DNA from: a virus
Length of the DNA stretch: 64,000 nt
Direction: 5' to 3' (one strand)
Virus record (IMG/VR): IMGVR_UViG_3300031369_000001
Location: 1-64,000 of that record
Position numbers and translations under genes: made by a program. Under the pieces are notes generated by a model. It worked only from the letters and a program-made list of their open reading frames with translations, was not told the DNA's origin and did not search any database. Of the stretch, positions 50-61,042 are shown in pieces. Each line of letters starts with the position of its first letter. The stretch's first letter is position 1.

Positions 50-1291
50 GCATATCAGCCGCAACAAGGATTTCCACAACAAGGATATCCTATTCAATCA
101 CCATATCCTATGCAAGGACAAATGCCGTCACAAAATATGCCACAGCAATTTACTGGACAAATGCCTGTTTATAATATGCCTGATGCTAATCAAATGATGA
201 GTGCATATCAAGAGCATAAAATGTCTATGGGACGCGGTGGATCTCAATATACTTTTGTTAAATTTTTAGGCCCAAATAATGAGTCTAAATGGGAGAGTGT
301 AGCAGTTCCTATTGGCTACCAATCGGTTATAAGGGCTTTTATTTTACCACCATGGGCACCTGGAAAATATATATTTGCGATTGCTTTAAGCCATTTTTGG
401 AAATCAGTCAGTAAGCCTCAAGGTGCGTCATTAGGCTGTCCGGGAGCTGATAGTTGTAAAATATGCCAAGTAGCTAGATTAGCTATTGAAAGTTCTGACC
501 TTAGTACACAGAAAAGGGCGAAAGATTGGGGGAGTGTTAATACTAATTTTCTATATCAAGTAGCGTTATTAGATACACCACAAATTCATTTTAATAATGG
601 ACAAGCCCAACCGGCTGTTTTACGAGCAGGTGCTACGCTGCATAAAGCAATTGGTAATTTATTAGAGGAAAGATCTGTTAATATTTGCGATCCACAATTA
701 GGTAGACCTATTAGAATAAAGAAAACAAAAACTGGTCCAGGGAAGTTTGATGTAGAATATAGTTGTATTGATGAAGATCCACAGCCTTTACCACAGCAAT
801 TTTGGGGATTATTGTCTAATTTGATAGACCTTGAATCTGTATTTAAGCATCCAAGCGAAGAAGAGATGCAAAATGCAATCATAGATATGGGACTTGGTAA
901 CATCGGTGGATCTTCATCGATGCAATATCCCAATTCTGGAGTACGGCAGCCTTATTCAATGCAAAATACAATTCCTCCAATGGTGTCTAATCCTATTCCT
1001 CAACCTAATGCTCCTAATTTAGTACCACAACCCCAACAGAATATTAATCCTCCTCCTGTTTCAAGTGGGAATTATAATGGACCTCCGTACTATCCGCAGC
1101 CTTCCCAACAGAATACTTTACCACAGCAACCTATTACGCCTAATGTACCATTTAACCGTAGTCCAATTAAAAAGGAAGCTCAAAATGTAAATCCTTCCCA
1201 GCAGGCGAATACTCAAGCACCTTTAGGGCAACAACAGCCCATGACTTTACAACAACTTCAAGATTCTATTCGAGGAAATAATGGTAATTAG
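2..1291 (+). CDS. ssDNA-binding protein (gp32-like phage SSB) with Q/N/P-rich tails; 5' end probably outside the window
   Basis: Frame is open from base 2 (NNQPQYPNNQPQYP...) into the 110 ATG. Core has H..C-P...C-x2-C, DPxxGRxIxIxK and GxxxxxYxx signatures. Lies directly upstream of RecA. Confidence 0.75.
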   Translation, partial: NNQPQYPNNQPQYPNNAYQPQQGFPQQGYPIQSPYPMQGQMPSQNMPQQFTGQMPVYNMPDANQMMSAYQEHKMSMGRGGSQYTFVKFLGPNNESKWESVAVPIGYQSVIRAFILPPWAPGKYIFAIALSHFWKSVSKPQGASLGCPGADSCKICQVARLAIESSDLSTQKRAKDWGSVNTNFLYQVALLDTPQIHFNNGQAQPAVLRAGATLHKAIGNLLEERSVNICDPQLGRPIRIKKTKTGPGKFDVEYSCIDEDPQPLPQQFWGLLSNLIDLESVFKHPSEEEMQNAIIDMGLGNIGGSSSMQYPNSGVRQPYSMQNTIPPMVSNPIPQPNAPNLVPQPQQNINPPPVSSGNYNGPPYYPQPSQQNTLPQQPITPNVPFNRSPIKKEAQNVNPSQQANTQAPLGQQQPMTLQQLQDSIRGNNGN

Positions 1292-1293
1292 TA

Positions 1294-2379
1294 ATGAAGC
1301 GTATTTCTATTGGGAAAAAACCTAAACCTATTAAAAAAGACCCAATTGCCGAATACCAGACTTATATAAAGAAAAAAGGTAATGGGATTGTTGAGGTATT
1401 AGATTTTTCTAATGATGATTGCTTAGCTAACGTTAAGCAATACATATCTACACAAAGTATTGCTTTAGATTCGTTATTGAATGGTGTAGGTATTCCAACA
1501 GGTAGAGTGACAGAGATTTATGGGCCACAACATATCGGAAAATCTACTATTATAGATCACCTATTTGCTTCTGTTCAGTCCATAGGTGGAGTGCCTATTT
1601 TATTTGATTCAGAATCTGCAAGGGATTTTAGGTACACAAGTAAGATAGGGGTCGATATTAATAAATTGCAATGCGTAGAATTTAAAAGAGATGAATTACA
1701 TATAGAAAATGTAATGATTCAAATGTACAATACTGTGGAATGGTGGGCGATTAATGCTCCAGATGTTCCTGTAGTAATTGGATGGGATGCGCTAGGTGGG
1801 ACTGCAACTAGAGATGAAGTAAAAAAGCGATTAGAAGCTGAAGGCAAACCTGCGGGAGCCGCTAAAGTATTAAAAGAAGCTTGTCGTTTATTGCCTTCTA
1901 AATTAGGAAGAACTAATGTAGCTATTGTAATTGCTAATCATCAATATGAAGCATTTGGTAAGAACAAAGGCGGTTTTGGAAATGTAACAAAAAAAGAAAC
2001 TTATGGAGGTTCAGCGGTCAGACATTTAGCCACTATTAGGATTAATTTATTTAATCTGGGATATATTAATTATAAAGGGGAACATATTGGTAGACAAGTT
2101 GGTGCATTTTTAGATAAAAATAGATTAGGGAATCCGTATAAAAAAACTGATTTTGCGCTTATTTCTGGAATTGGTATAGATAATACTTGGTCTATTTATG
2201 AAACATTAAAAAATGCAAAAATTATCGTAGTGGATGGTAGTTGGGGCGCAATTAATATAGATGGGGAAGTAATAAAATTTCAAGGTTGGAATGGTTTGGC
2301 AGATAAATGTAGAGAAAATCCTTTATTGTTTAATAAGTTGCTATCGGTTTATTACACAGTAATGTCTAACAATAAATAA
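1294..2379 (+). CDS. recA: RecA/UvsX-like recombinase
   Basis: STxSxxLDxLL..GIPxGRxTEIYG, Walker A GPQHIGKST, DSE, GGxAxxHxAxIRI, KNR, KFQG motifs. Confidence 0.92.
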   Translation: MKRISIGKKPKPIKKDPIAEYQTYIKKKGNGIVEVLDFSNDDCLANVKQYISTQSIALDSLLNGVGIPTGRVTEIYGPQHIGKSTIIDHLFASVQSIGGVPILFDSESARDFRYTSKIGVDINKLQCVEFKRDELHIENVMIQMYNTVEWWAINAPDVPVVIGWDALGGTATRDEVKKRLEAEGKPAGAAKVLKEACRLLPSKLGRTNVAIVIANHQYEAFGKNKGGFGNVTKKETYGGSAVRHLATIRINLFNLGYINYKGEHIGRQVGAFLDKNRLGNPYKKTDFALISGIGIDNTWSIYETLKNAKIIVVDGSWGAINIDGEVIKFQGWNGLADKCRENPLLFNKLLSVYYTVMSNNK

Positions 2380-2390
2380 GGAGTATTTTT

Positions 2391-2627
2391 ATGGATGATC
2401 TATATCATAAAAATTTATATGAATTGGTTTTATTGTTTTTAAAAGAAAATAATTTAGATGGGTTAAGTAATGTAGTAGAACCTTGTGAAATGGATTGTTG
2501 TTGTGACTTAGATAATTTAGGATGTTGGTGTGATAGATGTACAATGATGCATTGTTTCCCTGGTAAAAAGCATGTAGTGGAGAAGGATAGTTGGATAATA
2601 TTTCCGTGTAAATTTAGAAAAGAGTAA
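2391..2627 (+). CDS. Cys-rich hypothetical protein
   Basis: AGGAG RBS; fills gap in operon. Confidence 0.6.
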   Translation: MDDLYHKNLYELVLLFLKENNLDGLSNVVEPCEMDCCCDLDNLGCWCDRCTMMHCFPGKKHVVEKDSWIIFPCKFRKE

Positions 2628-2848: not shown

Positions 2849-3816
2849 TTATTTTTTCTGATTTACATCTACATGAACGTACTTCGGAAATAGTATTTAA
2901 TGAAGTACTTCCTGGTTTAAAGAATGCAGTAGTTCAACAAGCGGATAAATTACTTGTTTGTTTAGGCGATTTTTATCATTTAAGGTATAAAGTAGATGTA
3001 GAGATACAGAATAAGGTATTTGATTATTTTCATGATTTAAATGATTGTGGAATTGAAGTTATTTTATTAGTCGGTAATCATGATCAAATAAATGAAAAAG
3101 GAGATAATGCGTTAAAACCTTTTTCAGAATTAAATAATGTGGAAGTGATTGAACAGCCTTGTGTTTACAAAAATTTTATTTGGTTACCATATAGAAAAAA
3201 TAAACAAATATTATTAGACTACTTAAGTAAAATTCCTTCTGGAATTGTTTTCATGCATCAAGGTATTCAGGGGTTTGAGATTTATAATAACGTATTAGAT
3301 AATGATGGTGTGTCTATTAATGAATTATCTAGCTATTTTATGGTTATTTCTGGGCATTATCATAAAAGGCAGAATATACGTAATATATTTTATGTAGGGT
3401 CTCCTTATCAAATTGATGCAAGTGAAGCAAATCAAGAAAAAGGTTATATGGTTTTTACTAAAAATATTCAAGAACATTTTGTTCCTATTTATAAGACTGT
3501 GAATTGGGGGACTAAACATTATGTATTTGATGTAGTACCACAAGGTACTTGTATTAACGGTGTTGAAAAAGGAGACATCGTTAAATTGAAAGCTCCTCAA
3601 GGAGTGGATTTAGAAAAATTTAGGAAAAGTATTGTTGTTCCTGAAGGAGTTAGATGCATTGTAGAATCTTCAAATGATAGTTCGGTAAACAATAGATTGA
3701 ACGTATGTAGTAATGATTCAATGGACTATGTAAGATCTTATATTGATAATTTTGCAGGTGAAATCGATAAAGAATTACTATTACAAGTATTTAATCAATT
3801 AGTGAATGAACTATGA
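2845..3816 (+). CDS. sbcD: SbcD/Mre11/gp47-like metallophosphoesterase nuclease
   Basis: SDLH, LGD, GNHD, MHQ, SGHYH, YVGSP motifs; translationally coupled to an SbcC-like gene. Confidence 0.9.
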   Translation: MIIFSDLHLHERTSEIVFNEVLPGLKNAVVQQADKLLVCLGDFYHLRYKVDVEIQNKVFDYFHDLNDCGIEVILLVGNHDQINEKGDNALKPFSELNNVEVIEQPCVYKNFIWLPYRKNKQILLDYLSKIPSGIVFMHQGIQGFEIYNNVLDNDGVSINELSSYFMVISGHYHKRQNIRNIFYVGSPYQIDASEANQEKGYMVFTKNIQEHFVPIYKTVNWGTKHYVFDVVPQGTCINGVEKGDIVKLKAPQGVDLEKFRKSIVVPEGVRCIVESSNDSSVNNRLNVCSNDSMDYVRSYIDNFAGEIDKELLLQVFNQLVNEL

Positions 3817-5819
3817 AAATACTTAATATTAAATTGTGTAATTATGGCTCTTATGCAGGAGAACATTTTATTTCGTTGATTGATAGAGGATTAGTGTTAA
3901 TTCAAGGAATAAATAAAGACGAGCCTAAAATGGATTCTAACGGGGCAGGTAAATCTTGTATTCCTGATAGTTTAGACTGGTGTATTAATGGAAAAATACC
4001 TCGAGGAGATCATATAGACAGTATTATCAATGATGATTGTAAGAATTGTTATGTTGAGGTTCAGATAGAATCAGATAATGGAGATATGATCCTAATTCGA
4101 AGGGAGAGATCTAGAAAAGGAAACACTGTTTTGCAATTATTAGTCAATGATGACAATCAATTGACTAAGTTAGATATAAAAGAAACACAGAAAGCTATTT
4201 ATAATCTATTAGGCATTGATGGAGAAATTTTCCATTCTACTATTTTATTTGCTCAAACAAATTTAGTGCATTATGCAGATAGTACTGACACTAAGCGAAT
4301 GGAAATATTAACTAAATTATCACAACTTGAATTCATAGATAATCTTTTAGAAAAAGTTAAGTGTAAGCAAAATGAATTACTGTTATCAGAACAGCGTATA
4401 CTAGGAAATAAACAAACCATTGATCAAATTATTTCAAGTTTACAAGGTAAAAATTATACCGTTAATATACAAGATTGGGAAATTAGCAAAAGTAAGTCTA
4501 TTGAATCTTTACGCATTAAGGAAAATGAATTACAAATTAAAAATGATGCAATTCAAATATTGGATAAGGTTGGACATGAAACCAGAATACAAGAGTTACA
4601 GATCCAAGTAGCCAATTTAAGTAAACCAGATGAATCTGTATATAAATCTTATTTGGCACAGCAGTTAGATATTAATAAACAGCTAGCTGTTGTAGATAAA
4701 GAATTGTCTGATATTATTAATAAACAACAGTATTTGAATTATACTATGAATAATGGTAATTATTATTGCGATAGTTGCGGGCAGTTAGTTACTATAGAGC
4801 ATTTACAAAAGGAATATAGTAAATTAGAGAATTTATTTTCTGTAAAAACGTCAGAATTTCATAATATAAAAAATACATTGGATACAATTGATGGATCTAT
4901 TCGAATAGAATTACGTAAAATAGAGAGAGAAAAAGCTTTGTTTTTAGATAATTCTGTTAAGTTAAAAGCAGAAATACAAGAACAATTAAATGCTATATCG
5001 GATATAGACAAAAATAATAAATTAAAAAATTCTATTCAGGATGATATTATTTTTATTCAAAATCGTATTAAAGAAGAATCTAATAAGATAAATCCGTGGA
5101 TATCTATACAGCAAGAAGATAACCTTAAATTGGATAGATGTAATAACGATTTATTACAAATAAACCAACAATTAGATAGTATTACAACTTTAAAAGAGTG
5201 CTATGTTTTTTGGGTTAAAGCATTAGGGGCTAAAGGATTAAAATCGTACATACTTGATACAAAATTAAGTGAACTTAATGCCTCCATTAATTATTGGGTA
5301 AAGCTTCTTACGGATGGTACTATTTGGGTAGAACTGGGTTCTTACAAAAAGGGTAGAGGTAAGAAGATAATAAATAGTCCCGAGGTTAATATTTGTAGAT
5401 GGGCACCTAACGGTTCCATAATTTCTAGAAATTATAGAAGTTGGAGTGGAGGGGAGAAACAGCGTATTTCAATAGCTATTGATTTAGGACTTTCGTCTAT
5501 AATCTCTAGACGTTCTACCAAGCAGTACAACTTACTTATTTTAGATGAAATATTTAGACATTTAGATAGTGGTGGCAAGTATGCAGTAATGGACATGCTT
5601 CAGTTGTTAGCTAAGGATAAGGATTCTGTATTTGTGATAGATCACGATCCAGATTTTCAATCCTTGTTTGAAAATAGAATTACTGTTATAAAAGAAAATG
5701 GACAAAGTAATCTTGTGGAGGATACTTTTAATGAAGACAAAAGATATAAAGAAGAAACAAACAGTTCTATACCAAATAGAGCCTATTTCAAGCGAAGAGC
5801 AATTAGAAATTCCGTTTGA
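3813..5819 (+). CDS. sbcC: SbcC/Rad50/gp46-like ABC-type ATPase
   Basis: Walker A SNGAGKS, coiled coil with CDSCGQ zinc hook, signature SGGEKQR, Walker B LILDE, D-loop HLD, H-switch IDH. Confidence 0.92.
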   Translation: MKILNIKLCNYGSYAGEHFISLIDRGLVLIQGINKDEPKMDSNGAGKSCIPDSLDWCINGKIPRGDHIDSIINDDCKNCYVEVQIESDNGDMILIRRERSRKGNTVLQLLVNDDNQLTKLDIKETQKAIYNLLGIDGEIFHSTILFAQTNLVHYADSTDTKRMEILTKLSQLEFIDNLLEKVKCKQNELLLSEQRILGNKQTIDQIISSLQGKNYTVNIQDWEISKSKSIESLRIKENELQIKNDAIQILDKVGHETRIQELQIQVANLSKPDESVYKSYLAQQLDINKQLAVVDKELSDIINKQQYLNYTMNNGNYYCDSCGQLVTIEHLQKEYSKLENLFSVKTSEFHNIKNTLDTIDGSIRIELRKIEREKALFLDNSVKLKAEIQEQLNAISDIDKNNKLKNSIQDDIIFIQNRIKEESNKINPWISIQQEDNLKLDRCNNDLLQINQQLDSITTLKECYVFWVKALGAKGLKSYILDTKLSELNASINYWVKLLTDGTIWVELGSYKKGRGKKIINSPEVNICRWAPNGSIISRNYRSWSGGEKQRISIAIDLGLSSIISRRSTKQYNLLILDEIFRHLDSGGKYAVMDMLQLLAKDKDSVFVIDHDPDFQSLFENRITVIKENGQSNLVEDTFNEDKRYKEETNSSIPNRAYFKRRAIRNSV

Positions 5820-6039
5820 TGAAAATATAAAGCATCAAATAGTTAAACAAGAATTAGATAATGTTATTGTTGTTAGTGTTCTTTCTAGTATGACGCACAA
5901 TAGCGTACAACAATTAATGGAAAAATTTCCCATAGAATGGAAAGATAGGCCGGTTATGATTATAACTGATAATATAAAGTTTTTTAGATGCAAAAGAATC
6001 CGTACAAAAGATTATGTAAAGTTATATAAAAATGATTAG
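5731..6039 (+). CDS. hypothetical protein
   Basis: GGAGGA RBS before ATG 5731; overlaps the sbcC 3' end. Confidence 0.6.
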   Translation: MKTKDIKKKQTVLYQIEPISSEEQLEIPFDENIKHQIVKQELDNVIVVSVLSSMTHNSVQQLMEKFPIEWKDRPVMIITDNIKFFRCKRIRTKDYVKLYKND

Positions 6040-6679
6040 GACACCCATTAGATACGGTATGAATTATTCTTTAGTAGTGCTTGGCGTTGATCCAGGTATT
6101 AGAACTACTGGATTATCTATAGTGGGCTTAGATAATGTTGGTCAATATTATTGTTTAGGTAGCCAATATATTGAGACTAAAAAGCAAGATAAAAAATCCA
6201 TTAACCAATTAAGAACTAATATAGATGATTTTAGAAGATATAGGGAGGTGTATGAAGAATTAGAACATTTATACCTTTCCCACAATGCCAAATTAAACCA
6301 GGTTATTTCAGCGGTTGCGATCGAATCTTATACTGTTATGCGTTATAAAAATCAAAAAAGTGAAATTATTATTGGAAATAATGCTTGGAAATCTGCTGTA
6401 GTTTATGGTGGTGTTTTATTTTGGGCGCTTTCTCGTCAATTATATGTTGCTCCCTTTTTTCCAAATGACATTAAAAAACGATTTGGTAAAAAAGATAAAA
6501 GTAAAGAAGGTATTCAATTAGCAGTTGAGAGTGAGGTGTTGAGTGCTTATGAAGAAATTCATAAGTATTCTAAAACAAAACGTGAGCATGTATCAGATGC
6601 TACCGCGCATGCGGTTTTATTAATAGAAGAAATAAGAAAGAATAAAATATTTATAGGAGGATTTAATGAAACTATATAA
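6032..6679 (+). CDS. ruvC: RuvC-like Holliday junction resolvase
   Basis: VLGVDPG..TG, VAIE, P..IKK, H.SDA.A.A motifs. Confidence 0.88.
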   Translation: MIRTPIRYGMNYSLVVLGVDPGIRTTGLSIVGLDNVGQYYCLGSQYIETKKQDKKSINQLRTNIDDFRRYREVYEELEHLYLSHNAKLNQVISAVAIESYTVMRYKNQKSEIIIGNNAWKSAVVYGGVLFWALSRQLYVAPFFPNDIKKRFGKKDKSKEGIQLAVESEVLSAYEEIHKYSKTKREHVSDATAHAVLLIEEIRKNKIFIGGFNETI

Positions 6680-7286: not shown

Positions 7287-7561
7287 CTACTATCTTTCTA
7301 TATAATAGAGAGCGAATTGTAATGGAAGGATTACAATTAGCTAAATTACGAATTTCTAAAAAGTTGGGTTTATCTGAGAATATTGTAGAAGGGGATTTTA
7401 AGATTGCTAACGGAGAATTAGTTCCTAATTTTACTATAGATAAGCAGAAAGTTCCTTTGTCTAAATTGGATGATTTAGAAATGATTGTGAAAGATACATG
7501 GAGCCAAACTCTAGTAGATATCAAAGACAGGTTAGATAGTTTTGAAAAGGGTTCCCATTAA
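7283..7561 (+). CDS. hypothetical protein
   Basis: ATGA coupling; GAGG RBS. Confidence 0.55.
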   Translation: MTTIFLYNRERIVMEGLQLAKLRISKKLGLSENIVEGDFKIANGELVPNFTIDKQKVPLSKLDDLEMIVKDTWSQTLVDIKDRLDSFEKGSH

Positions 7562-8216
7562 AGACACAAGAATTTCTTTTGACGATCCAGGTGTAAATGT
7601 AAAAGTTTTACCTGGTTCTAAAGTTTCTTCTATTGAATTTGGATCTCCAATAGAAGAATTAAACAATAAAAGTTTGAGAAGTCTTGCAAAGATAAAATAT
7701 GTAACTTCGCAAACCGGTATTTCTTTGAATGATTTATCTAAAGTTTATCCATTTGATAAGGTAGCATTTTCTACATTGACTAAATGGAGTAAGGCGGATA
7801 ATTGGGTAGAAGACCGTGAAAATTATAGGATTGCATTAGAGACAAAAATATTAGAGAAGCTTGGGCAGGCACATGTCCAGGCTATTACTAATCAATTAAA
7901 AGATGCTGACACTATATCGGAAAAAGTGTTTTCAATGCTTGAAAACATGGGCATAGCTACTGTTAATTCTTATGAAGGTTTATTAAATGCTTTAATGCGA
8001 TTAGAAAAATTTAGATTTGATGCTAGGAAAGAAATTGCTGACATAACTAGAGGGGTATTAACTGATAAAGAATCTGAAAAGGTTGACAGTAGGCAGGGTG
8101 TGTCCGTTCCTAAAATAACTCATTCTAAGGAAGCTTTAAGACAAGCAGCTTTTGCTATTATAAAGGCAAATAGAGAACTGAATAAAAAGAAAAATGAAAA
8201 AGAGACATTGGACTAA
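7542..8216 (+). CDS. putative terminase small subunit (HTH plus coiled coil)
   Basis: HTH-like SLNDLSK...FSTLTKWSKADNW followed by a helical oligomerisation region; upstream of TerL; TTG start. Confidence 0.5.
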   Translation: MKRVPIKDTRISFDDPGVNVKVLPGSKVSSIEFGSPIEELNNKSLRSLAKIKYVTSQTGISLNDLSKVYPFDKVAFSTLTKWSKADNWVEDRENYRIALETKILEKLGQAHVQAITNQLKDADTISEKVFSMLENMGIATVNSYEGLLNALMRLEKFRFDARKEIADITRGVLTDKESEKVDSRQGVSVPKITHSKEALRQAAFAIIKANRELNKKKNEKETLD

Positions 8217-8859
8217 AAAAGAAGAGTTAAATTTACTTCAAGGTATTGGGGCAAATAGTATTAAATGGCTTTGTAGGAAAAGTGGTAATAGGAGTATATC
8301 TTCTTTATATCATAAATTATCGAGAATTGGTTATAATGGGGGATTTACTAGGGGTTCTTATACTTTACGGCAATTGATAGAATTAACTGGATATAGTGAA
8401 TCGCAGTTAAGAAGGGCTGCTAAGGCTCTTCTTCAAAAATGGCGTAGAACTTCTACTAAAGGAAGTTTTGTAATTACTGAAGATCAAATGGACGAATTAT
8501 GTACTTGGCTTGGTAAAGATTTTTGGAGTAAACGGCATAAATTATATAGATGTATGTGGTGTAATACGCAAAAAAATAATCATTATGGTTTGGGTTTATG
8601 TTTGGATTGCTATAATGAATATCATAGATTATTATATATGTTAGGTTTACGTAAATATAATTTTGAGCATCTTAGATACTGTATAGTTTCTTTATATTTT
8701 CCTTTACAAGATATGGATATTGTTACTGGATTTCTAGATAAAGGTAGGGCTATACCAAAAGAACTATTATTGAAGTGTATCGGTTTAAAACAATTGAGGG
8801 AACATCATGGAATTGAAGCCTGCTTTGAAAGGCATGCTATCGCTTTTAACGAAGGATAG
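8194..8859 (+). CDS. HTH/zinc-finger hypothetical DNA-binding protein
   Basis: WTKKEE..L start, YTLRQLIELTGYS HTH, C-x2-C..H..GLC-x2-C. Confidence 0.6.
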   Translation: MKKRHWTKKEELNLLQGIGANSIKWLCRKSGNRSISSLYHKLSRIGYNGGFTRGSYTLRQLIELTGYSESQLRRAAKALLQKWRRTSTKGSFVITEDQMDELCTWLGKDFWSKRHKLYRCMWCNTQKNNHYGLGLCLDCYNEYHRLLYMLGLRKYNFEHLRYCIVSLYFPLQDMDIVTGFLDKGRAIPKELLLKCIGLKQLREHHGIEACFERHAIAFNEG

Positions 8860-9823
8860 TAGTAAATCTGTCTTTAATAAAATTAGGTTTGTAGTGAATC
8901 CATCTGGAGTATTTGTCACTGATGGAATATGTTCTTCTTTTGCTTATATAGACTCTCCTTTATTAGATTGTTTAGTGGATGCTTCAATAGTGTCTGAAGC
9001 AGTAAAGGACAAAGGTGATTTAGAATTTAGTACAACATTTGACGGAACTAATCGTGTATGTCTTATGGGTAAATCCAATTATTACTATTTAGATTGTCTA
9101 CCAGACGTATATCCATTGCCTATTTATCCTAAAAGTGATTATCAATTTATTAGTATGGATATATGTAAATTGAATAGTGTTATTTTTGGCGCTTCTAAAT
9201 CTTCTAAGGCAAATGGATTTCCTTATTTACATTTTACTAAAGACTATATTGAAGCAACCGATGGAAATAGATTAGTTAGATTAGAGGAAATGAGTTTTCC
9301 TTATGAAGACATAATTATTCCCATTGAATTGTTTAATAAATGGCCTAAAAAAGTGAAATGTGGTGCAGTGTATAAAGATGATTACTTTTTGTATTTTATG
9401 TTGGATAGTATTATTCGTATAGTTGCTTTAGGGGATAGAAAATATCCTAATACAGAGATAGCTACAAAGTATAAATATGAGCACCATACTATTGTAAATA
9501 GAAAACAATTATTAGATGTAGTTAAACAAGCTTCTAATGTTTCAGATATAAATGGTATTTCTTTTAATATTATTGATAGAAAAATAGAAATAAAAGCTTT
9601 AGGAATTGATACTGTTTCAGATTCTTACATTGGTAATGTAGGTATTATTGATGGATCTACTGATATCTCATTTAATGTAGGAATTAATGGTGTAATGATA
9701 TACCAATGTCTATCGCATATTAAATCTGATGTAGTTGAATTAATATATAATAAATATCCATCTCCTTTAGTAATTAAAGGCGATAATATTACTATGTATA
9801 TTTGGCCGTTAATTAATGAATAA
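8807..9823 (+). CDS. dnaN: DNA polymerase III beta sliding-clamp-like protein
   Basis: 338 aa; ATDGNRL, YP motifs, VNRKQLL, IGxN..I..L..I..D.V...P-hydrophobic..P C-terminus typical of DnaN. Confidence 0.8.
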   Translation: MELKPALKGMLSLLTKDSSKSVFNKIRFVVNPSGVFVTDGICSSFAYIDSPLLDCLVDASIVSEAVKDKGDLEFSTTFDGTNRVCLMGKSNYYYLDCLPDVYPLPIYPKSDYQFISMDICKLNSVIFGASKSSKANGFPYLHFTKDYIEATDGNRLVRLEEMSFPYEDIIIPIELFNKWPKKVKCGAVYKDDYFLYFMLDSIIRIVALGDRKYPNTEIATKYKYEHHTIVNRKQLLDVVKQASNVSDINGISFNIIDRKIEIKALGIDTVSDSYIGNVGIIDGSTDISFNVGINGVMIYQCLSHIKSDVVELIYNKYPSPLVIKGDNITMYIWPLINE

Positions 9824-9990
9824 TGGACAAGAAACCTAAAAAGGATTGTTATTTTGATGAAAAACGTGGTATAGTAATTCACGTATATGAAATACATGCA
9901 TGGAAATGTAATTGTGGGAAAAAGACAAATAGGGTTCCAATAAAAGATGATTTTTCAGTTTTTTTATTTGGAAAGGGTTTAGGTAAATAG
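9823..9990 (+). CDS. small hypothetical protein (55 aa, below ORF-track cutoff)
   Basis: Exactly fills the gap with TAATG coupling; contains NRVPIK. Confidence 0.5.
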   Translation: MDKKPKKDCYFDEKRGIVIHVYEIHAWKCNCGKKTNRVPIKDDFSVFLFGKGLGK

Positions 9991-10494: not shown

Positions 10495-10671
10495 ATGAAA
10501 ATTTCTACCAGTATATTATATACGGATTATTTTCATTTTGTAGATGACTTAGTGACCTTTAAAAATAGGTTGGTAACTAGTGTATTTGTAGGAATAGATT
10601 TATCGGAAGAACCTATTTATACTACTAAGATTATCAACAATTATGAAAAGGTTACTTTTCATGAAAAATAA
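10495..10671 (+). CDS. small hypothetical protein (58 aa)
   Basis: Fills gap; TAATG coupling to terL. Confidence 0.4.
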   Translation: MKISTSILYTDYFHFVDDLVTFKNRLVTSVFVGIDLSEEPIYTTKIINNYEKVTFHEK

Positions 10672-12599
10672 TGCAGCGTATTCCTATAATAAATACTACT
10701 CCTTTAACTAATCCATTTAAACGGATAGCTATTCCCTTTATAGATAGAAATACTACTATTGCTAATTCATATGAATTACTATTAGCTTCACTTGAATCTA
10801 ATTTTAATTATGAAATAGTTGAAGAAGATTTAACTGAAGAAGAATCTAATTTTGATTATGAAGATATTAATCCTGAATGTGAAATAAAGTTAGATGAATT
10901 AGATAAGCAAATGATACTTGAATCAGTTGCTTATTTTGCAGATTCTATTTTAACGGGGCCTATTGAGCCTCCTTATAATGGTAGATTTTTAATTGGTGAC
11001 CACCACCTTGAATGGGATGAATTAATTGCTTATAATAATAGAATTTGTATATTGAGTGCTAGAGATCACGGTAAGTCATATTTTTTTGATTTTGCTTACC
11101 CAATTAGACAAGCAATTAAATATCCTGGAGAATGCGGGTTTATTTTTTCAGCTACCCAATCACAGGCATCTGAATTTTTAGAAATGATTAAGATTGAAAT
11201 TGAGACTAATCCTAAATTACAATATTTAGTTCCTAAAAAGAAATCTTCATGGGGTTCTAAAAAAATTACGTTAGCAAATGGACATAGGATATATGCTAGG
11301 GGTTTTGGTGTGCGTGTTCGAGGTGCACACCCTAGATGGATTGTAGTAGATGACGGGCTTAACGATGAAACTGCTTGGAGTGAGACAGTTAGAAATAAAC
11401 AAAATGATTATTTCTTTAATGCTATTTCAAACATGGTTACTCCTTCAGGCCAAATAATTGTAGTAGGTACCCCATTTCATATAAATGATTTATATGGGGA
11501 ATTACAAAAAAATAAACAATATGTTTTTAAGATGTATCCGGCTGAATCTAATCCAGGAGAAATTGCTAATAATATTCTTTGGCCAGATAGATATTCATTA
11601 GAGCGTTTACTTACTAAAAAAGATGAAATAGGACTTATTAGATATGGTAGGGAATTTTTAGTTTCTCCAATTAGTGATGAAATGAGTTTATTCCCAATTA
11701 GTCTATTTAGAGGTAATCCCGTTGAACAATTTAGTTTAAAGTTAGGGATGCCTTTACAATTTTGGTTAGATAAAGGGATTGTTCCTTATGCCGGGGTTGA
11801 TTTCGCCATTTCATCCACTGTCCAGGCAGATTATACGGTTATTATTATTTTAGGTTTAGACAATTTTGGAAATAGATGGTTGATCGATATGTTTCGAAAG
11901 AAAGGATTGCCTTATAGAGAACAGCAATCTGAAATTAATAGAATGGGACGTATATATGATCCTGGATTAATGACTTTAGAAGCAAATCAAATGCAACGAA
12001 TTTTTGGAGACGAATTAATAAGGGAAACTGATTTACCTATTTATAAATTTGTAACTACTGCGCAAAATAAAAATTCATTAGAATTTGGTGTTCCTGAATT
12101 ACGTGTATTGTTTGAAAATGGTAAATTTAGAATTCCTCGAGGAGATGCCCATAGTATTGAGTTAACGGATATATTGATTGATGAATTTAGATCAATGACT
12201 TTTTTAGATGGTAGGGTTCAATCAGTTGGCCAGCATGATGACACCGTTTTAGCTTGTTGGTTATGCAATCAAGCAATTAAACGAGGTGCTTTTGGTTTTA
12301 GTTTTGGTGATGACGTTGAGATAGAACCTCGTAGATCTAATTTAATGGATAATGTAGCAGCGACTGATTCTAAAATATCTAATGCAGATCTAGAAGAAAA
12401 GAAAAAATATGTTATTAATAATATTAAGAAAGGAAATGGTATTATTTGCAATGAATACGACTATCCTATATACAGAGATATTTTACACGAAATAGCTGGA
12501 GAAAGTATTGATGGATGTTCAGAAATACATAGTATTATTGCCTTACAAGAAATAAAGCGATTGGATGATCAATATAATTTTGGAATAGGAGGTTTTTGA
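10671..12599 (+). CDS. terL: terminase large subunit
   Basis: Walker A ARDHGKS, RG..PRWIVVDD Walker B, VVGTP motif III, nuclease GVDFA...DYT, E..Q, HDDTV.A.W. Confidence 0.93.
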   Translation: MQRIPIINTTPLTNPFKRIAIPFIDRNTTIANSYELLLASLESNFNYEIVEEDLTEEESNFDYEDINPECEIKLDELDKQMILESVAYFADSILTGPIEPPYNGRFLIGDHHLEWDELIAYNNRICILSARDHGKSYFFDFAYPIRQAIKYPGECGFIFSATQSQASEFLEMIKIEIETNPKLQYLVPKKKSSWGSKKITLANGHRIYARGFGVRVRGAHPRWIVVDDGLNDETAWSETVRNKQNDYFFNAISNMVTPSGQIIVVGTPFHINDLYGELQKNKQYVFKMYPAESNPGEIANNILWPDRYSLERLLTKKDEIGLIRYGREFLVSPISDEMSLFPISLFRGNPVEQFSLKLGMPLQFWLDKGIVPYAGVDFAISSTVQADYTVIIILGLDNFGNRWLIDMFRKKGLPYREQQSEINRMGRIYDPGLMTLEANQMQRIFGDELIRETDLPIYKFVTTAQNKNSLEFGVPELRVLFENGKFRIPRGDAHSIELTDILIDEFRSMTFLDGRVQSVGQHDDTVLACWLCNQAIKRGAFGFSFGDDVEIEPRRSNLMDNVAATDSKISNADLEEKKKYVINNIKKGNGIICNEYDYPIYRDILHEIAGESIDGCSEIHSIIALQEIKRLDDQYNFGIGGF

Positions 12600-13475: not shown

Positions 13476-13700
13476 ATGAAAACGTATCGAGACTTCAAAA
13501 AAGCGCTTGAAGATTTTAGGGACTGTGGTGAGGCGATGAACTATTACGCAGGTTTATGGTTCGTCGGAACGGCGCAGTCTATAGGAGAGATGACTACTTC
13601 TTCTGCAAAACATGCCACGGAATTCGCTCTCGCAATTGGGGGAATGTCGAAGGAGGAAATCCGAGAGGAGTTAGCTGATTGGTGTGAGGTGTCGAAATGA
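13476..13700 (+). CDS. hypothetical protein, first gene of GC-rich island
   Basis: AAGGAG RBS before ATG 13476. Confidence 0.7.
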   Translation: MKTYRDFKKALEDFRDCGEAMNYYAGLWFVGTAQSIGEMTTSSAKHATEFALAIGGMSKEEIREELADWCEVSK

Positions 13701-13843
13701 GACTGAATAGGACACAAGAGTATCTTGAGTTAGCCGTAAATCTTTTGGCCGACAAGGGACTTTCGCCTTGTCAGTGCGACGATTTTGACGAGTACGAGGA
13801 GGCGCTCATTGAGGTCGAGGGGGATGTTCTCTGGGCACAGTAG
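13697..13843 (+). CDS. small acidic hypothetical protein (48 aa)
   Basis: GAGGTG RBS, ATGA coupling. Confidence 0.55.
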   Translation: MRLNRTQEYLELAVNLLADKGLSPCQCDDFDEYEEALIEVEGDVLWAQ

Positions 13844-13847
13844 CTGG

Positions 13848-13955
13848 TGACTTCGACCTCCATCCGCTCGCCACTCCGTGGCGGGCGACGATGGGCGCCG
13901 AAAGGCAACCGAGGGCCAACCGTGGCCCGGCAAATGCGCGACAGGCGCAAGGAGA
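13848..13955 (+). repeat. structured intergenic spacer 1 of cassette-like array
   Basis: TGACTTCGACC...stem-loop...CGATGGGCGCCGAA shared with 14234-14290; GTGGCCCG and GCGCGACAGGCGCAAGGAGA shared with 14746-14779. Confidence 0.8.
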
Positions 13956-13960
13956 TGGAT

Positions 13961-14236: not shown

Positions 14237-14290
14237 CCTTCGACCCCCACGCCGCCCCCCCGAAACTCGGGGGCGGCGATGGGCGCCGAA
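14231..14290 (+). repeat. structured intergenic spacer 2
   Basis: GACTGACCTTCGACC, GC stem-loop GCCGCCCC/GGGGCGGC, then CGATGGGCGCCGAA. Confidence 0.8.
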
Positions 14291-50100: not shown

Positions 50101-50683
50101 CTTAATTAATAAATGGAATGAGACAGGAAGTGACCATGATATACATTTAATTATTTTACAAAAAGCTGCGATGGATGAGTTTGGATTGGATAGTGGGACG
50201 ATTAAACATTTTGATAAGAAGTTATTAAATAAGGTACATAAAATACCTAAAACTGTTATGGGGGCAAGAAAATTTATAAGAGCGCAGTATAGTCTTACAC
50301 AAGAATATCTAAAAAAACAGGGGATATCGGAAATTATTCTGTTTAGAGGAATGCAACTTAAAAAGATTAAAAGTGATGGTAGGTCTAAAGAGATTGAAGT
50401 TACTTCCCAACCTCTATCTTCTTGGTCTACTTCTTTTTCAGAGGCTAAAGATTTTTCTGTAAGGGGGGCAGTTGGTAGTTCTTCTTTTTCTAGTGTTTTA
50501 TTGTCTAAAAAAGTTCCTATAGAACAAATATTTTCTATACCAAAGGTTGGTATAGGTGAAAGTGATGAACAAGAATGCGTTTTACTTGGAAATAAGAAAG
50601 ATCCTGAAAAAGTGATTTCTTTAGCTGCTGATTATCATTATATGTATAATATTAATGTAAAACAATTATATGGAGAAAAGTAA
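47129..50683 (+). CDS. MuF (head morphogenesis) polyvalent protein: MuF + InPase-like + zincin + C-terminal ADP-ribosyltransferase
   Basis: MuF RIA.TE, ACKHC, PVHPNCVC. InPase IETPKG..R, YG, D.EELDVFVG, DQ, DEQK..LGF. Zincin HEISH..Y....E..A. ART LFRG, PLSSWSTS..A..F, EQE.V. Confidence 0.85.
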   Translation: MIIMPLTPDQILEIQDIIELHHNAFIANTIGHDALPDEVIDELRDKGLLNKESKDLIKKIYEYGQVLGKLNSPQASQMSYNRFEDYIQKNPQPLTQMQQRAVRMAQVNAGQYCMGLGNIIEKDTGRTLIEADQRFRIAYEDKIKNLTALNAARRESIEKLRSDLGWSTGDWARDMKRIAVTEIMYSTQQGQADYLRKKYGEDVFVARIPNPGACKHCIRLHIGPDGQPRIFKLSTLEEHGSNVGRKQNDWQAVVGPVHPNCVCNMISVPKGWGFNEEGDLLPGGKLGEIYYEPEELERALIEENLFYKSLKAKVNIVFQGIPIVIETPKGDKRKWINGDGSIGETIMQEASYGFVKNTTSMDEEELDVFVGPFKDSPVVYIIDQKNPDNELYDEQKCMLGFRNEEHALNVYRMNYDNPDKFIYDCSSMDIEAFKRWCGIGIIREEIYKALFIGPKGGKWANAEHTIPYQDPSLAMRNKASNFYDGLISWVKDNKDNLQFDSNGNVYIQANQFTNDKNLSHLHILITPKGVFRGNGIGKTSDGKDVLVLTNLRNPYDTTYLDTRITSRVIIHEISHYLNAGYDKVHNIVTEHGKEYYNQSVEFDAFWNEGAGELERFIRNFKDTNQHHIFERIVGNSPDFKYFNSKVKSFWDKTFLNSLTEANKKKFDKRLYRLWDDLKSNIYKSNYDLSPGPGSGLNFFLGTNVNKPNSGGTIRYKEVLELGKEELEKRKKQKGNKGIYGDIEDYQFGENIIPVKELIIPETVKESKKEARKKNKDVNKFVLTRRLKWKKGNVNNLNKSLFIGPRGGKWADSEHTIPWKEEVSTNGKFVDTNDSALSNVLAELLGKNIHLEKVRETDKELFYRGGKELLIGAKKLINALKNKGFKVEIIPQGKNLPIVVLNKPIKKEPIKKEPIKKEPIKKEPIKKEPIKLSSDEVIKQDKVLKDKKIFNKLSSDYVNRINNIYKVLKDDKDFKYFVKSIGHTNVKDTIEYLINKWNETGSDHDIHLIILQKAAMDEFGLDSGTIKHFDKKLLNKVHKIPKTVMGARKFIRAQYSLTQEYLKKQGISEIILFRGMQLKKIKSDGRSKEIEVTSQPLSSWSTSFSEAKDFSVRGAVGSSSFSSVLLSKKVPIEQIFSIPKVGIGESDEQECVLLGNKKDPEKVISLAADYHYMYNINVKQLYGEK
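48465..48537 (+). repeat. tag repeat B, copy 2
   Basis: 73/73 identical to 44032-44104. Confidence 0.95.
49529..49594 (+). repeat. tag repeat A, copy 2
   Basis: 63/66 identical to 40914-40979. Confidence 0.95.
49835..49918 (+). repeat. 15-bp tandem repeat CCAATAAAGAAAGAA x5.6 (PIKKE)
   Basis: Read directly; linker before the ART domain. Confidence 0.95.
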
Positions 50684-55207: not shown

Positions 55208-55420
55208 ATGATGAAAAGAGTAGCAATTAAAGATCCTTATTTTTCATTAAAATGGGAAATTTTCCAATTGCCGGAAGAACAGCAAACGAAGTGGGAATTG
55301 ATGTATGAGGTGTCAGGTGGCTCACTTCTTTTTGAACGGATTCATGTTCTTTACCCACGTAAAATAAAGAATTTGGTAAAGGTAATTGATATCCTTTACG
55401 AGAAAATGGAAAGAGAATAG
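55208..55420 (+). CDS. hypothetical protein (MMKRVAIK)
   Basis: AAGGAGG RBS; start at 55202, 55208 or 55211. Confidence 0.6.
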   Translation: MMKRVAIKDPYFSLKWEIFQLPEEQQTKWELMYEVSGGSLLFERIHVLYPRKIKNLVKVIDILYEKMERE

Positions 55421-55430: not shown

Positions 55431-55811
55431 ATGGAGAAGAAAAGAATTTTGGTAGTAGATGACGATCCATTAATTTGTAAAATGATTAAACGTTGCATAA
55501 GAATTTTTATTAAATATCCTATATTAAAAGTGAAATGGGCATTTAGTGTTAGGCAAGCTATAAAGACTATAGATAACAGTCATAAAAAATATAGTCTAGT
55601 GATTACTGATTGGGATTGTTCCCAAGAGAATGATGGATTTAAAGTTGTTTCTTGTGCATTGGGGAATGGTATCCATTGTATTGTGTACACAGGTGATTCT
55701 TTATCTGCAAAATGTTTTTTAAAGAATTATGGAATAGAAATACCCATTATTGACAAAGTAGCTGATATTACGAAATTAATGGAGGTTATAAATGGAATTA
55801 TCATTAGATGA
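55431..55811 (+). CDS. stand-alone response-regulator receiver (REC) domain
   Basis: RILVVDDD, LVITD (phosphoacceptor), DG, YTG, DK; AGGAGG RBS. Confidence 0.8.
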   Translation: MEKKRILVVDDDPLICKMIKRCIRIFIKYPILKVKWAFSVRQAIKTIDNSHKKYSLVITDWDCSQENDGFKVVSCALGNGIHCIVYTGDSLSAKCFLKNYGIEIPIIDKVADITKLMEVINGIIIR

Positions 55812-56577
55812 TAAACATTTAAACACTTCATATCAAGAATTATTTGATGCAAATATAAAATTAGTATACCATTATGTTAAAAAACATTCTTATTTTTCCG
55901 ATGAGTTGGAAAAGGAAGATGTTTTACAAGACGGTAAACTAGGACTATTCTTAGCAGCTAAAACTTTTGATCCTAATAAAAATGTAGCTTTTTCTACTTG
56001 GGCATATTATTGGATAAAAGCCATTATTACTCGTTCTCAGGCCAAGTTTACATTTTTAAAATGGCCAAATAAAAAATATATTATCCGGACTAAAATTATT
56101 CAATTTTGGGGGAAGTACTACAATTCACATGGAGAAAATCCAGAATTAGACGACATTATTAATGCTTTAGAAGATTTGGACGCATATATGCCTATAACTT
56201 CTAAAGATATTACCATTGTTTATAATAATATAACAATGTTCAAAAAATCATTAACTAATAAAACAGGGGAAGCTAATCAAGACTTTTCAGATTATGGTAA
56301 TGAAATTCTATTAGAGAGTATAATGGTTCCGCAGGAATCAGCTGAAGATAGACTAGTAAAAAAAAGGTCGGTTGAGTTAAATAAATGTTTGTACAAATTG
56401 CCATATTTTGAACGTTTTATAATTGAAAAAAGATATTTGGAAGAATATACTTTAGAGGATATCAGAAATTTATGGAGTGAAATTACTGGAAAGACGTATA
56501 CACGAGAATGGATACGCCAAAAAGAAAAAACAGCATTAAAGAAAATGAAACGATTTATGGAGGAATTTGATGTCTAA
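55792..56577 (+). CDS. sigma-70-family RNA polymerase sigma factor
   Basis: Region 2 N..LV...EDV.QDG..GL..A...FDP.K...FST.A..WI; region 4 TL.DI...TRE.IRQ.E..AL.K. Confidence 0.9.
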   Translation: MELSLDDKHLNTSYQELFDANIKLVYHYVKKHSYFSDELEKEDVLQDGKLGLFLAAKTFDPNKNVAFSTWAYYWIKAIITRSQAKFTFLKWPNKKYIIRTKIIQFWGKYYNSHGENPELDDIINALEDLDAYMPITSKDITIVYNNITMFKKSLTNKTGEANQDFSDYGNEILLESIMVPQESAEDRLVKKRSVELNKCLYKLPYFERFIIEKRYLEEYTLEDIRNLWSEITGKTYTREWIRQKEKTALKKMKRFMEEFDV

Positions 56578-56908
56578 GTTATTTTATATATTTCTAATAG
56601 TTGTTACTTGCACGCCATTTGTAATTTATCAATACATAACATATGAGTTATATGATTATACCGGTAAGGTTTATGAAGAATCTTATATTACGGTAAAAGA
56701 TTATGAGTCTATTAACGACTTACCAGTTTATAAGCAATTAAAACAAATACAAAATAGAAAAGAAAAATGTGATAGGATATGTCGGTTGGCTAAGTATTTG
56801 TATAGAAAAGAAATGAAAAGATTAAATGATTGGTGGTACACATGGGATCAACTTGTAAAAGCAAAAAAGGAGAGATTACGTGAAAAGAGTAGCAATAAAA
56901 ACAGATAG
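56570..56908 (+). CDS. membrane-anchored hypothetical protein
   Basis: GGAGG RBS; N-terminal hydrophobic segment. Confidence 0.55.
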   Translation: MSKLFYIFLIVVTCTPFVIYQYITYELYDYTGKVYEESYITVKDYESINDLPVYKQLKQIQNRKEKCDRICRLAKYLYRKEMKRLNDWWYTWDQLVKAKKERLREKSSNKNR

Positions 56909-57332
56909 CTGTGATTGTGTCTATTGTAGGTACCCGGTTACTCCAGAAGTTCATGACAAGAGGTTTATTGCTGAAGCGGTTGCAATTCGGCAATATATAA
57001 AGTTAGATCAATTACCTAATTTACAAAAAGCATTAGAAAAAGCTTCAGTTAATTCGGAAATTTGGTTGGAGATAGTGTTCTTGCTTAAAAAAATTATTGA
57101 AGATAAGATAGCTTTAACGGAAGTTATTTCTCATGCTTCCATTGGTTTAATTCATTCTGAATGGTATAAAATAGGGGATTATTTGCGGAAACGGGCAAAA
57201 GACTATAGGAAAAATGCATCTATAGAAAGAAAGGATAACGAAATTGAGGGAGCTGCTATTTGGGAAGGAGTTGCTGAGGACCTAGAATCTTGCGCGTATG
57301 CTATTGATAACGGGATGCATTGGAATAAGTAG
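56880..57332 (+). CDS. hypothetical protein (MKRVAIK)
   Basis: AAGGAG RBS, GTG start. Confidence 0.65.
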   Translation: MKRVAIKTDSCDCVYCRYPVTPEVHDKRFIAEAVAIRQYIKLDQLPNLQKALEKASVNSEIWLEIVFLLKKIIEDKIALTEVISHASIGLIHSEWYKIGDYLRKRAKDYRKNASIERKDNEIEGAAIWEGVAEDLESCAYAIDNGMHWNK

Positions 57333-58338: not shown

Positions 58339-59157
58339 ATGAAAAGACAGCCAATGCAAAATGATGATGAGATGAAGAACAAGAAAGATCAGATGGATGA
58401 GGATAACGAAGATTCTCAAATGGAAGAAGAAGAAAAGTCTTGCGGTACTAAGAAATCACAAGACCTAACCGAAGATGACCTCAGTAAAGCTGTTGAGGTA
58501 TTAAATGATTATGTCAATACGACTGATCCAAATTCTCGAAAAGAGACTTTATTGAAAAAAGCAATGACTGATGATCTTTCTTCTGAAGAGATGAATGAAC
58601 TATTTAAATCTTTAAGTGGTTCTGAAAATTCAAATACGGAAGAAGTTAATGATTTTTCTGATTCTGTTCTTAATTCATTAGAATCTGATACTATTCAGAA
58701 ATCATTAGATGTTTCTGATTATTTAACAGAATTGCATAGTGGATTAGTTAAATCGCTTAGTACGTTAGAAGGAGAATTAAATAGTAATGCTATGCGTCAG
58801 CATACATTTAATATTACTCTTGCTAAGAGCATGGTTTCTGTTGTTACTGGGTTACAGCGTACAATGAATGTTATTTCTGAATTAAAAAAATCTATGGACA
58901 ATTATAGTGAAGCCCCTATTAGAAAGCCAACATCTGTTCAACCTTTAAACAAAGCTTTTGTTGGACACAATGGGCAAGAAGGGCAGTCTTTAAAGAAATC
59001 TGAAATGATGGGACAATTACTCTATCTTGCAGAGCAAGGAGTTGATAACATTGGGGGAGTTAGTGTAAATCATGCGGTTGCTTTACTGGAAAGTAGCAAT
59101 CAATTACCTAATCAAGTTGTTAGTGCTTTAAAAGCTAGACAAGGAGCTACTGCTTAA
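58339..59157 (+). CDS. scaffold-like head assembly protein
   Basis: Acidic/helical, between protease and MCP, about 12 K|[SA] sites. Confidence 0.7.
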   Translation: MKRQPMQNDDEMKNKKDQMDEDNEDSQMEEEEKSCGTKKSQDLTEDDLSKAVEVLNDYVNTTDPNSRKETLLKKAMTDDLSSEEMNELFKSLSGSENSNTEEVNDFSDSVLNSLESDTIQKSLDVSDYLTELHSGLVKSLSTLEGELNSNAMRQHTFNITLAKSMVSVVTGLQRTMNVISELKKSMDNYSEAPIRKPTSVQPLNKAFVGHNGQEGQSLKKSEMMGQLLYLAEQGVDNIGGVSVNHAVALLESSNQLPNQVVSALKARQGATA

Positions 59158-60646: not shown

Positions 60647-60670
60647 TTGTTATTCGATGTAGATATTACC

Positions 60671-60706
60671 AATAAAGAAAGTTAGGGGGACTTTCTTTAT
60701 TATTTC
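60671..60706 (+). terminator. terminator-like hairpin after MCP
   Basis: AATAAAGAAAGT / ACTTTCTTTATT stem plus T-rich tail. Confidence 0.6.
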
Positions 60707-60721
60707 TAAAGGGAGTACATT

Positions 60722-61042
60722 ATGCCAAAAATGAAAAATATTTTACCTCATATGAGAAACAATAAAGTAAGGGTTAATGGTAATTCTTACAAATTGAATA
60801 ATGAGGGTGAAGCATTTATTGAGGATGAAATAGCTATTGGAATATTATTGCAAGATTCTGCATGGAGAAAGGTAATTGATAGGATTCCTATTAAGTCACC
60901 CTTAGAAGATGGTATTGATTACTCTAAAATGCATAAAGATGAGCTGATAGCTTTACTTAATTATAAAAATATTGAATTTGATCCAAAAGCTAAAAAAGCC
61001 GAGCTAATACAGTTAGTTCAGCAATTACCATTAGGAGAGTAA
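60722..61042 (+). CDS. protein with C-terminal HeH/LEM-like domain
   Basis: YSKM.KDEL..LL....IEF...AKKAELI.L; typical post-MCP gene. Confidence 0.7.
   Translation: MPKMKNILPHMRNNKVRVNGNSYKLNNEGEAFIEDEIAIGILLQDSAWRKVIDRIPIKSPLEDGIDYSKMHKDELIALLNYKNIEFDPKAKKAELIQLVQQLPLGE

Follow-up and report, generated by a model that had tools for sequence, protein, structure and literature searches.

A conserved terminal peptide tag on recombination, helicase and packaging proteins of an uncultured myovirus clade, with a divergent phage sliding clamp as its candidate reader

The window analyzed in this study, the first 64 kb of the 102,614-bp virus record IMGVR_UViG_3300031369_000001 (the whole genome is referred to as G000), encodes DNA-metabolism and packaging proteins that carry a short peptide of the form R-[IVT]-[PA]-I in their N- or C-terminal tails, as well as a homologue of the bacterial beta sliding clamp that we consider as the candidate reader of this tag. 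G000 has a GC content of ~0.31-0.32, nearly all of its genes are located on the + strand, and the ends of the contig overlap by ~240 nt, with the ORF for the single-stranded DNA binding protein (SSB; G000 102263-102614 joined to window 1-1291) crossing the junction. No close relative of G000 was found among the deposited phages searched. Its major capsid protein is ~37% identical to homologues of SPO1-like Bacillus phages, and its large terminase subunit (TerL) is 35% identical to TerL of the Bacteroides phages DAC19-23. Since many of the ~2,000 TerL homologues present in metagenomes reside on contigs of 95-110 kb, the window belongs to a large uncultured clade. Judged from these comparisons, the clade is a large and wholly uncultured group of roughly 105-kb myoviruses with a distant kinship to the SPO1-like phages via the major capsid protein.

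A six-frame scan for R-[IVT]-[PA]-I returned 18 strict matches on the + strand and six on the - strand. Thirteen of the strict matches fall into credible + strand ORFs of the window and are spread over 11 proteins, with seven of them beginning at residue 3; an earlier note on this DNA had arrived at the same counts, and all positions it listed translate as given. Among the proteins with a recognizable function, all encoded on the + strand like the remaining copies in the window, strict matches occur in RuvC (gene 6032-6679; RTPI at residues 3-6, 6038-6049, upstream of the catalytic V-L-G-V-D-P-G segment), a protein resembling the small terminase subunit (TerS-like; gene 7542-8216 with a TTG start; RVPIK at residues 3-7, 7548-7562), TerL (gene 10671-12599; RIPI at residue 3 and RIAI at residue 18 of a ~70-residue N-terminal tail, 10677-10733), an MmcB-like nuclease (gene 46575-47132; RIPI at residues 3-6, 46581-46592) and a 1602-aa SNF2/type IB topoisomerase protein (gene 40203-45011; RVAI and RVAIK in a low-complexity linker, 43614-43712). 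The last of these ORFs joins SNF2 helicase domains to a C-terminal type IB topoisomerase domain (Pfam 3e-24 and 8e-17). The TerS-like protein is perhaps not a terminase subunit, because its label rests on a weak PHROG match (6e-4). Relaxed forms, all of which had been named previously, were found in the SSB tail (1157-1171, in the gene ending at 1291), RecA (gene 1294-2379; R-I-S-I at residues 3-6, 1300-1311), the C-terminal tail of SbcC (gene 3813-5819; R-R-A-I-R followed by a C-terminal R-N-S-V, 5793-5816) and the scaffold protein (gene 58339-59157; R-Q-P-M at residues 3-6, 58345-58356). This last match is weak and may be due to chance.

The remaining copies in the window belong to smaller or less well characterized proteins, including a 55-aa protein (gene 9823-9990; RVPIK at residue 37, 9931-9945), a 91-aa protein (gene 17440-17715; RIPIK near the C-terminus, 17689-17703, where the Lys is followed immediately by the stop codon in a 95%-identical relative), a 106-aa protein (gene 17721-18041; RTPIK at residues 3-7, 17727-17741) and an Arc-like protein of 106 aa (gene 60722-61042; RIPIK at residue 54, 60881-60895). 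Two further carriers are a small protein with RVAIK near its N-terminus (gene ~55202/55211-55420; 55217-55231) and a 150-aa protein with RVAIK at residues 3-7 (gene 56880-57332, GTG start after a Shine-Dalgarno site; 56886-56900), situated just upstream and just downstream, respectively, of a phage sigma-factor gene (55792-56577; phrog_351, 7e-27). Both start with M-K-R-V-A-I-K (from 55211 and 56880), and a tagged pair around a sigma-factor gene recalls the docking of T4 gp33 and gp55 on the clamp for late transcription. Tandem K-E-P-I-K units in a 1184-aa protein (gene 47129-50683; 49844-49918) could represent the tag with Lys in place of Arg, or else a linker that has nothing to do with it. 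Outside the window, G000 encodes a DnaB-like helicase with one copy at residue 3 and another at its very C-terminal end, a GmrSD_N-domain protein that ends in KRKAIKN (a relaxed form with Lys at position 2) and a primase with an internal copy. The MmcB-like nuclease and DnaB both begin with M-N-R-x-P-I, and their genes are preceded by the same 8-nt stop/start overlap (ATGAATAG) at the junctions from the DHH gene (window 46575) and from g95114 (G000 95673).

The copies sit in N- or C-terminal tails outside of the cores matched by Pfam or PHROG. No tag was present on PolA, the SF2 helicase, the UvsY-like protein, the clamp, the protease, the capsid protein or the tail proteins of G000. What had been described as a motif on many unrelated proteins is rather a feature of DNA recombination, helicase and packaging proteins, to the exclusion of virion proteins and the polymerase. 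The originally proposed pattern M-x-R-[IVT]-[PA]-I is present, but it proved too narrow and specific to G000, and the tag is C-terminal as often as it is N-terminal.

Over the 102.6-kb genome as a whole, the proteome contained R[IVT][PA]I 14 times with 1.8 matches expected, and R[IVT][PA]I[KR] nine times with 0.22 expected; neither count was reached in any of 2000 within-protein shuffles. Motif density in the first 12 residues was ~15-fold that of protein interiors (terminal bias, binomial P = 2e-4), and proteins of the virion module contained two matches in 12,464 aa compared to 12 in the 17,942 aa of the remaining proteins. Within the first or last 12 residues the strict motif was absent from all 1,539 ORFs of 73 unrelated SbcC-bearing phage loci but present in 6/124 here (Fisher 1.5e-7). 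With a single exception, the N-terminal cases begin at the earliest start codon available in their ORF. The exception is the 55211 protein: its ORF already opens at TTG 55172, which makes its start a choice. Several N-terminal cases are preceded by a Shine-Dalgarno site or a stop/start overlap with the upstream gene, and the alternative internal Met of RuvC is missing in the 95%-identical relative. Since the codons of the motif vary between genes and differ from those of this relative only synonymously, apart from a single amino-acid change (Ile to Thr, at the variable position), conservation acts at the protein level, as had been suggested. A DNA-level repeat or an effect on translation start was rejected, because codons differ, C-terminal copies exist and the tag persists at GC contents from 0.30 to 0.66. 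Similarly, a Thr-Pro phosphorylation site was dismissed since Val or Ile takes the place of Thr in this phage.

The same tails are tagged in relatives of G000. Among 67 TerL homologues with an N-terminal tail, 33 carry the tag in a total of 54 copies (6.6 +/- 2.5 expected), mostly as R-T-P-V or R-T-P-I and often as three to five tandem units. Position 2 of these copies is Thr in 32/54 and otherwise Lys, Glu or Tyr, while position 4 is Val or Ile in 52/54. Several TerL genes of the clade (P0026, P0092, P0105, P0111 and P0118) contain intein or homing-endonuclease domains (PF14890, PF14528). In the complete or near-complete relatives compared (G001-G008, GC 0.52-0.67), the tag is C-terminal on SbcC and N-terminal on RuvC, the TerS-like protein and TerL; the DnaB-like helicase is tagged at the N-terminus and, in three genomes, also exactly at the C-terminus. 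The RecA N-terminus, which carries only the relaxed R-I-S-I in G000, is tagged in the tagged relatives (R-T-P-V or R-K-P-V). Across 52 SbcC-anchored metagenome loci spanning GC 0.30-0.66 the same tails were tagged, with many SbcC proteins ending in R-T-P-V, R-T-P-I or R-H-P-I, and SbcC and DnaB of relatives can end exactly in R-T-P-V, R-T-P-I or R-A-P-I. PolA, primase and virion proteins of the relatives were free of the tag. More distant phages encoding SbcC and RecA possessed neither the tails nor the tag. The presence of tags on orthologous tails across relatives defines a conserved core R/K-x-[P/A]-[I/V/L], of which the G000 pattern [K/N]-R-[V/I/T]-[P/A]-I-K is an AT-rich, shortened spelling, most relatives using R-T-P-V. 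The motif is, on the same comparison, a lineage trait of the phage clade and not a feature of a single genome.

Two internal W-R-[TV]-P-[IV] segments are conserved in the portal proteins of L005-L040 (orthologues of window 37346-38944); these are buried core sequence instead of tail tags and inflate naive motif counts. R-x-P-L in PolA of relatives was likewise discarded as a tag, as it is part of the conserved polymerase segment L-P-L-x-K-x-T. Elsewhere in the window, a 2.36-kb island with a GC content of ~0.52 (13568-15929; genome ~0.31) is replaced by ~200 bp in relative L001 within an otherwise co-linear stretch of 85-90% identity. The island had no Pfam, Rfam, tRNA or plasmid match, and we take it to be an insertion.

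The gene at 8807-9823 (+ strand) encodes the candidate reader of the tag, a phage beta-sliding-clamp homologue recognized by sequence, profile and fold. It matches phrog_947, was detected by phmmer against PDB sequences (4e-6), and in profile searches reached 5e-24 to the B. subtilis clamp and 1.7e-15 to the E. coli clamp, with the A-T-D-x-x-R pocket strand aligned. Its AlphaFold2 model (pLDDT 95.3, pTM 0.90) retrieved only DnaN beta clamps among the top Foldseek matches, with a TM of ~0.8 over the full length. Profile and predicted fold identify the product as a DnaN-type three-domain sliding clamp. Members of this family share only ~20% identity, and conservation peaks in the pocket strand V-E-A-T-D-x-x-R and in the C-terminal W-P, which align with A-T-D-G-H-R-L and M-P of cellular clamps. 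The latter segments line clamp subsites I and II (PMC11139829). In the G000 protein the conserved pocket residues are E149, T151, D152, R155, W333 and P334, and in 116 family sequences Glu was kept in 100, Thr in 86, Asp in 112, Arg in 103, Trp in 101 and Pro in 87. Both the Glu before A-T-D (Val or Thr in cellular clamps) and the Trp replacing Met362 are specific to the family. The E. coli equivalents are presumably V170 for E149, T172 for T151, R176 for R155, M362 for W333 and P363 for P334. The clamps never carry the tag themselves.

The neighborhood of the clamp gene is conserved as well. A trio consisting of the genes for the TerS-like protein, g8194 and the clamp (window 7542-9823) follows RuvC in every tagged relative and is located far from TerL. 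The product of the conserved partner gene g8194 (8194-8859, + strand) combines a Myb/SANT-like N-terminus with a four-Cys zinc ribbon and is probably a DNA-binding regulator. It was also considered as reader of the tag, for which its resemblance to Myb/zinc-ribbon DNA-binding proteins makes it an unlikely candidate.

Enrichment, terminal position, selection at the protein level and conservation on orthologous tails across the clade are all observed for the tag. As a conserved, terminal peptide shared by multiple clients it is therefore read as a docking motif, and we consider it very probable that it is a genuine short linear motif of this kind. The original suggestion of a protein-level docking or addressing signal for a common hub is accordingly the reading with the best support, on account of the same tails being tagged in divergent relatives, while the hubs it named first, a compartment, a chaperone or a protease adaptor, gained no support. 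Of the hubs considered the phage clamp, which that note had mentioned only among proteins to be screened, leads, and the reader may yet be another protein. The clamp is put forward tentatively, at rather less than even odds. According to the full proposal, a docking tag on DNA enzymes read most likely by the phage's own divergent clamp, to which we attach a chance only slightly short of even, disordered N- and C-terminal tails would tether the enzymes of DNA ends and branches to one hub on DNA. The clients would comprise the DnaB-like helicase, RecA, SbcC, RuvC, the TerS-like protein and TerL, together with extras specific to G000. Within the pocket, the tag Arg would pair with the family-specific Glu beside the pocket strand (E149), the Pro would pack or stack on the family-specific Trp (W333), and the aliphatic residue, often with a free C-terminal carboxylate, would fill the hydrophobic subsite I. 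The clamp would thereby serve recombination-dependent replication and packaging in the manner of a tool-belt rather than work as a polymerase processivity factor. Somewhat more doubtful is the broader claim of a new Arg-Pro class of clamp-binding motif, in which a Glu/Trp-rebuilt pocket on a clamp devoid of loader and polymerase client would gather helicase, RecA, SbcCD, RuvC and terminase and couple recombination-dependent replication directly to packaging.

Comparison with known systems revealed both likenesses and differences. The canonical bacterial clamp-binding motif (CBM) is Q-phi-x-[L/M]-[F/L] or Q-phi-x-[L/M]-x-[F/L]; such motifs occupy N- or C-terminal tails, and the pocket reads the C-terminal carboxylate (PMC11139829). 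The tag resembles the CBM in being a linear motif of four to six residues in the disordered tails of many DNA enzymes, often exactly C-terminal and sometimes in several copies, with a polar first residue and, in this phage, a hydrophobic residue at position 4 and, in the copies with Val or Ile there, at position 2. G000 also encodes a beta-clamp homologue whose pocket is conserved. In contrast to the CBM, all copies have Arg (Lys in some relatives) instead of the key Gln at position 1. Position 2, aliphatic in the CBM, is Val, Ile or Thr in this phage but usually Thr or another polar residue in relatives, and position 3, free in the CBM, is fixed as Pro or Ala. Position 4 is Ile/Val and not Leu/Met, and Lys, Arg or the chain end follows at position 5 with no Phe/Leu anchor at positions 5/6. 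Furthermore, the tag is carried by recombination and packaging proteins instead of the polymerase, and its binding to the clamp is a prediction.

The eukaryotic PCNA-interacting motif APIM has the consensus [K/R]-[F/Y/W]-[L/I/V/A]-[L/I/V/A]-[K/R]. It shares with the tag the arrangement of a basic residue, three mostly hydrophobic residues and another basic residue, and R-V-A-I-K breaks the APIM rule at position 2 only. The tag agrees with the APIM consensus at positions 1, 4 and usually 5, but it has no aromatic residue at position 2 in any copy and mostly Pro, which is foreign to APIM, at position 3. Basic-aliphatic APIM peptides bind the bacterial beta clamp, which implies that the clamp pocket can take such peptides without a Gln, although the weak binding of R-A-L-V-K points to the importance of an aromatic position 2 (PMC7261172). 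In T4 and RB69 the gp45 clamp is read by C-terminal peptides on gp43, gp33 and gp55 (PMC2988020). Like these phages, G000 combines a phage-encoded clamp with short terminal peptides on several phage proteins and would link replication to late functions, the reading by the clamp being predicted here. However, gp45, a PCNA-like trimer, comes with a dedicated loader, a polymerase client and a hydrophobic and acidic motif, whereas the clamp of G000 is DnaN-like, no loader was found and the polymerase is untagged. A further point of reference is the bacterial SSB, whose C-terminal tip D-D-D-I-P-F-COOH links many genome-maintenance enzymes. The tag has the same [charged]-x-Pro-[hydrophobic]-COOH layout at a flexible end, but its charge is reversed, it is distributed over many clients instead of a single hub, and N-termini are tagged as well.

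Terminal clamp-binding peptides are textbook knowledge for E. coli beta, PCNA and T4 gp45 (PMC11139829, PMC9690074, PMC2988020), PCNA binds Mre11-Rad50 (PMC6009593), RecBCD binds the beta clamp (10.1101/2025.08.20.671105) and phage Mu uses the clamp for late transcription (PMC12867686). Neither an Arg-x-Pro-aliphatic tag nor the use of terminase, RecA or a DnaB-type helicase as a clamp client was described in the literature searched, and a search for the tag tetrapeptide together with terminase matched only papers on Rtp-virus.

The clamp as reader gains from the distribution of pocket residues across the clade. Genomes in which the pocket Glu or Trp of the clamp is changed, namely G006 (Ile/Met), the L100/L208 lineage (Gly/His) and G008 (Trp to Phe), have zero or one tagged tail, while at least two tagged tails accompany clamps with both residues in about two thirds of cases. 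G007 has neither a clamp nor the tails. This covariation of the pocket Glu/Trp with tag count suggests the clamp as reader, with three or four lineages compared and shared ancestry uncorrected. A cleaner co-occurrence of clamp and tag, in which G006 as well as G007 had appeared clamp-less, was withdrawn after a deeper profile found a divergent clamp in G006.

Several observations weigh against a clamp-read tag, the few lineages behind the covariation being one of them. G006 has a clamp yet no tags, and the clamps of L199, L204, L212 and L104 keep both Glu and Trp in genomes without a clear tag; in some clamp-bearing genomes, very basic tails or the variant R-R-G-V-S-A-G take the place of a clear tag. 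PolA, which would be the first protein expected to bind a clamp, is untagged and has no canonical CBM at either end. The clamp-loader AAA+ domain PF13177 was not found in G000 by a search that was positive in 13/14 control genomes, and the loader may be supplied by the host. In addition, the tag departs from the residue rules of the canonical CBM (Gln at position 1, Leu/Met at position 4 and Phe/Leu at position 5 or 6) and from that of APIM, tandem copies four residues apart would be unable to fill two clamp pockets at once, and the tails of GC-rich relatives are long and so basic that they could bind DNA directly. Because of PolA, the missing loader, the untagged clamp genomes, the small number of lineages and the failed residue rules, we rate docking as no better than very probable and the clamp as reader as no better than tentative.

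Direct binding to DNA is the first of the two alternatives that survive best, each of which we regard as unlikely. According to this explanation the R-x-P-[VI] units are part of basic, proline-rich arms, similar to the S/T-P-K-K arms of histone H1 or AT-hook arms, and make the enzymes bind DNA more tightly with no protein hub involved. It agrees with the fact that every client acts on DNA, with the Lys/Arg/Pro-rich composition and tandem motifs of the long tails in GC-rich relatives, and with the location of the SNF2/TopIB copies within a low-complexity linker. However, the tails in G000 comprise about six residues with two or three positive charges, too little for electrostatic binding, and the conserved positions are the Pro (or Ala) and the aliphatic residue and not the charge. 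Many copies lie at the exact C-terminus and would place a negative carboxylate beside the supposed DNA contact, PolA, primase and the SF2 helicase bind DNA yet lack the motif in their tails, and the AT-hook core G-R-P is part of no copy.

The second alternative, similarly unlikely, retains docking and exchanges the hub, which would be either the phage SSB, in a version of the bacterial SSB-tail network with reversed polarity in which [charged]-x-P-[hydrophobic]-COOH is located on the clients, or a conserved host protein. The recombinase, SbcCD-type nuclease, resolvase and helicase resemble the partners of T4 gp32 and bacterial SSB, and R-x-P-[IV]-COOH is the charge-reversed pattern of the E. 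coli SSB tip D-I-P-F-COOH. The SSBs of the clade have long, Gln/Pro/Tyr-rich low-complexity tails without the acidic C-terminal tip usual in SSB, gp32 and gp2.5, and in the untagged genomes SSB is either divergent (G006) or was not detected (G007). The untagged PolA, a poor fit to the clamp, also speaks for SSB in this respect. Against SSB, primase, PolA and the UvsY-like mediator are typical SSB partners that lack the tag, the SSB of this phage carries the tag in its own tail, and SSB is not known to show conservation or covariation at the level of a pocket. If the hub came from the host, it would have to be shared by hosts that differ widely in GC content.

A terminal degron or remodelling signal for a host ClpX-type AAA+ unfoldase, setting the time at which nucleases, recombinase, helicase and terminase are degraded or taken apart, would fit the extreme terminal location and the basic and aliphatic character of the tag as well as the ends K-R-K-A-I-K-N and R-R-A-I-R, which recall the C-terminal ClpX signal of MuA (R-R-K-K-A-I), but is highly improbable, as many copies in relatives are 10-25 residues from the N-terminus, in tandem or in internal linkers, the conserved Pro is not known from any class of ClpX signal, there is no obvious gain from marking most core DNA enzymes for destruction, and the joint loss of tags and changes of the clamp pocket would be left unexplained.

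The assembly of the machines for replication, repair and packaging is governed by short docking motifs, of which very few are known in phages outside of T4 and T7. The case presented here concerns a four-residue tag that is conserved over a large uncultured clade and comes with a defined list of clients and a concrete candidate reader. Should the reader be SSB or DNA, the tag would still be a useful annotation handle for the DNA-metabolism proteins of the clade. If the clamp reads the tag, this would widen the chemical range of clamp-binding peptides, which would be of use in finding clamp partners and peptide inhibitors, it would show that terminase and RecA are able to be clamp clients, and it would provide an example of a clamp serving recombination and packaging rather than the polymerase.

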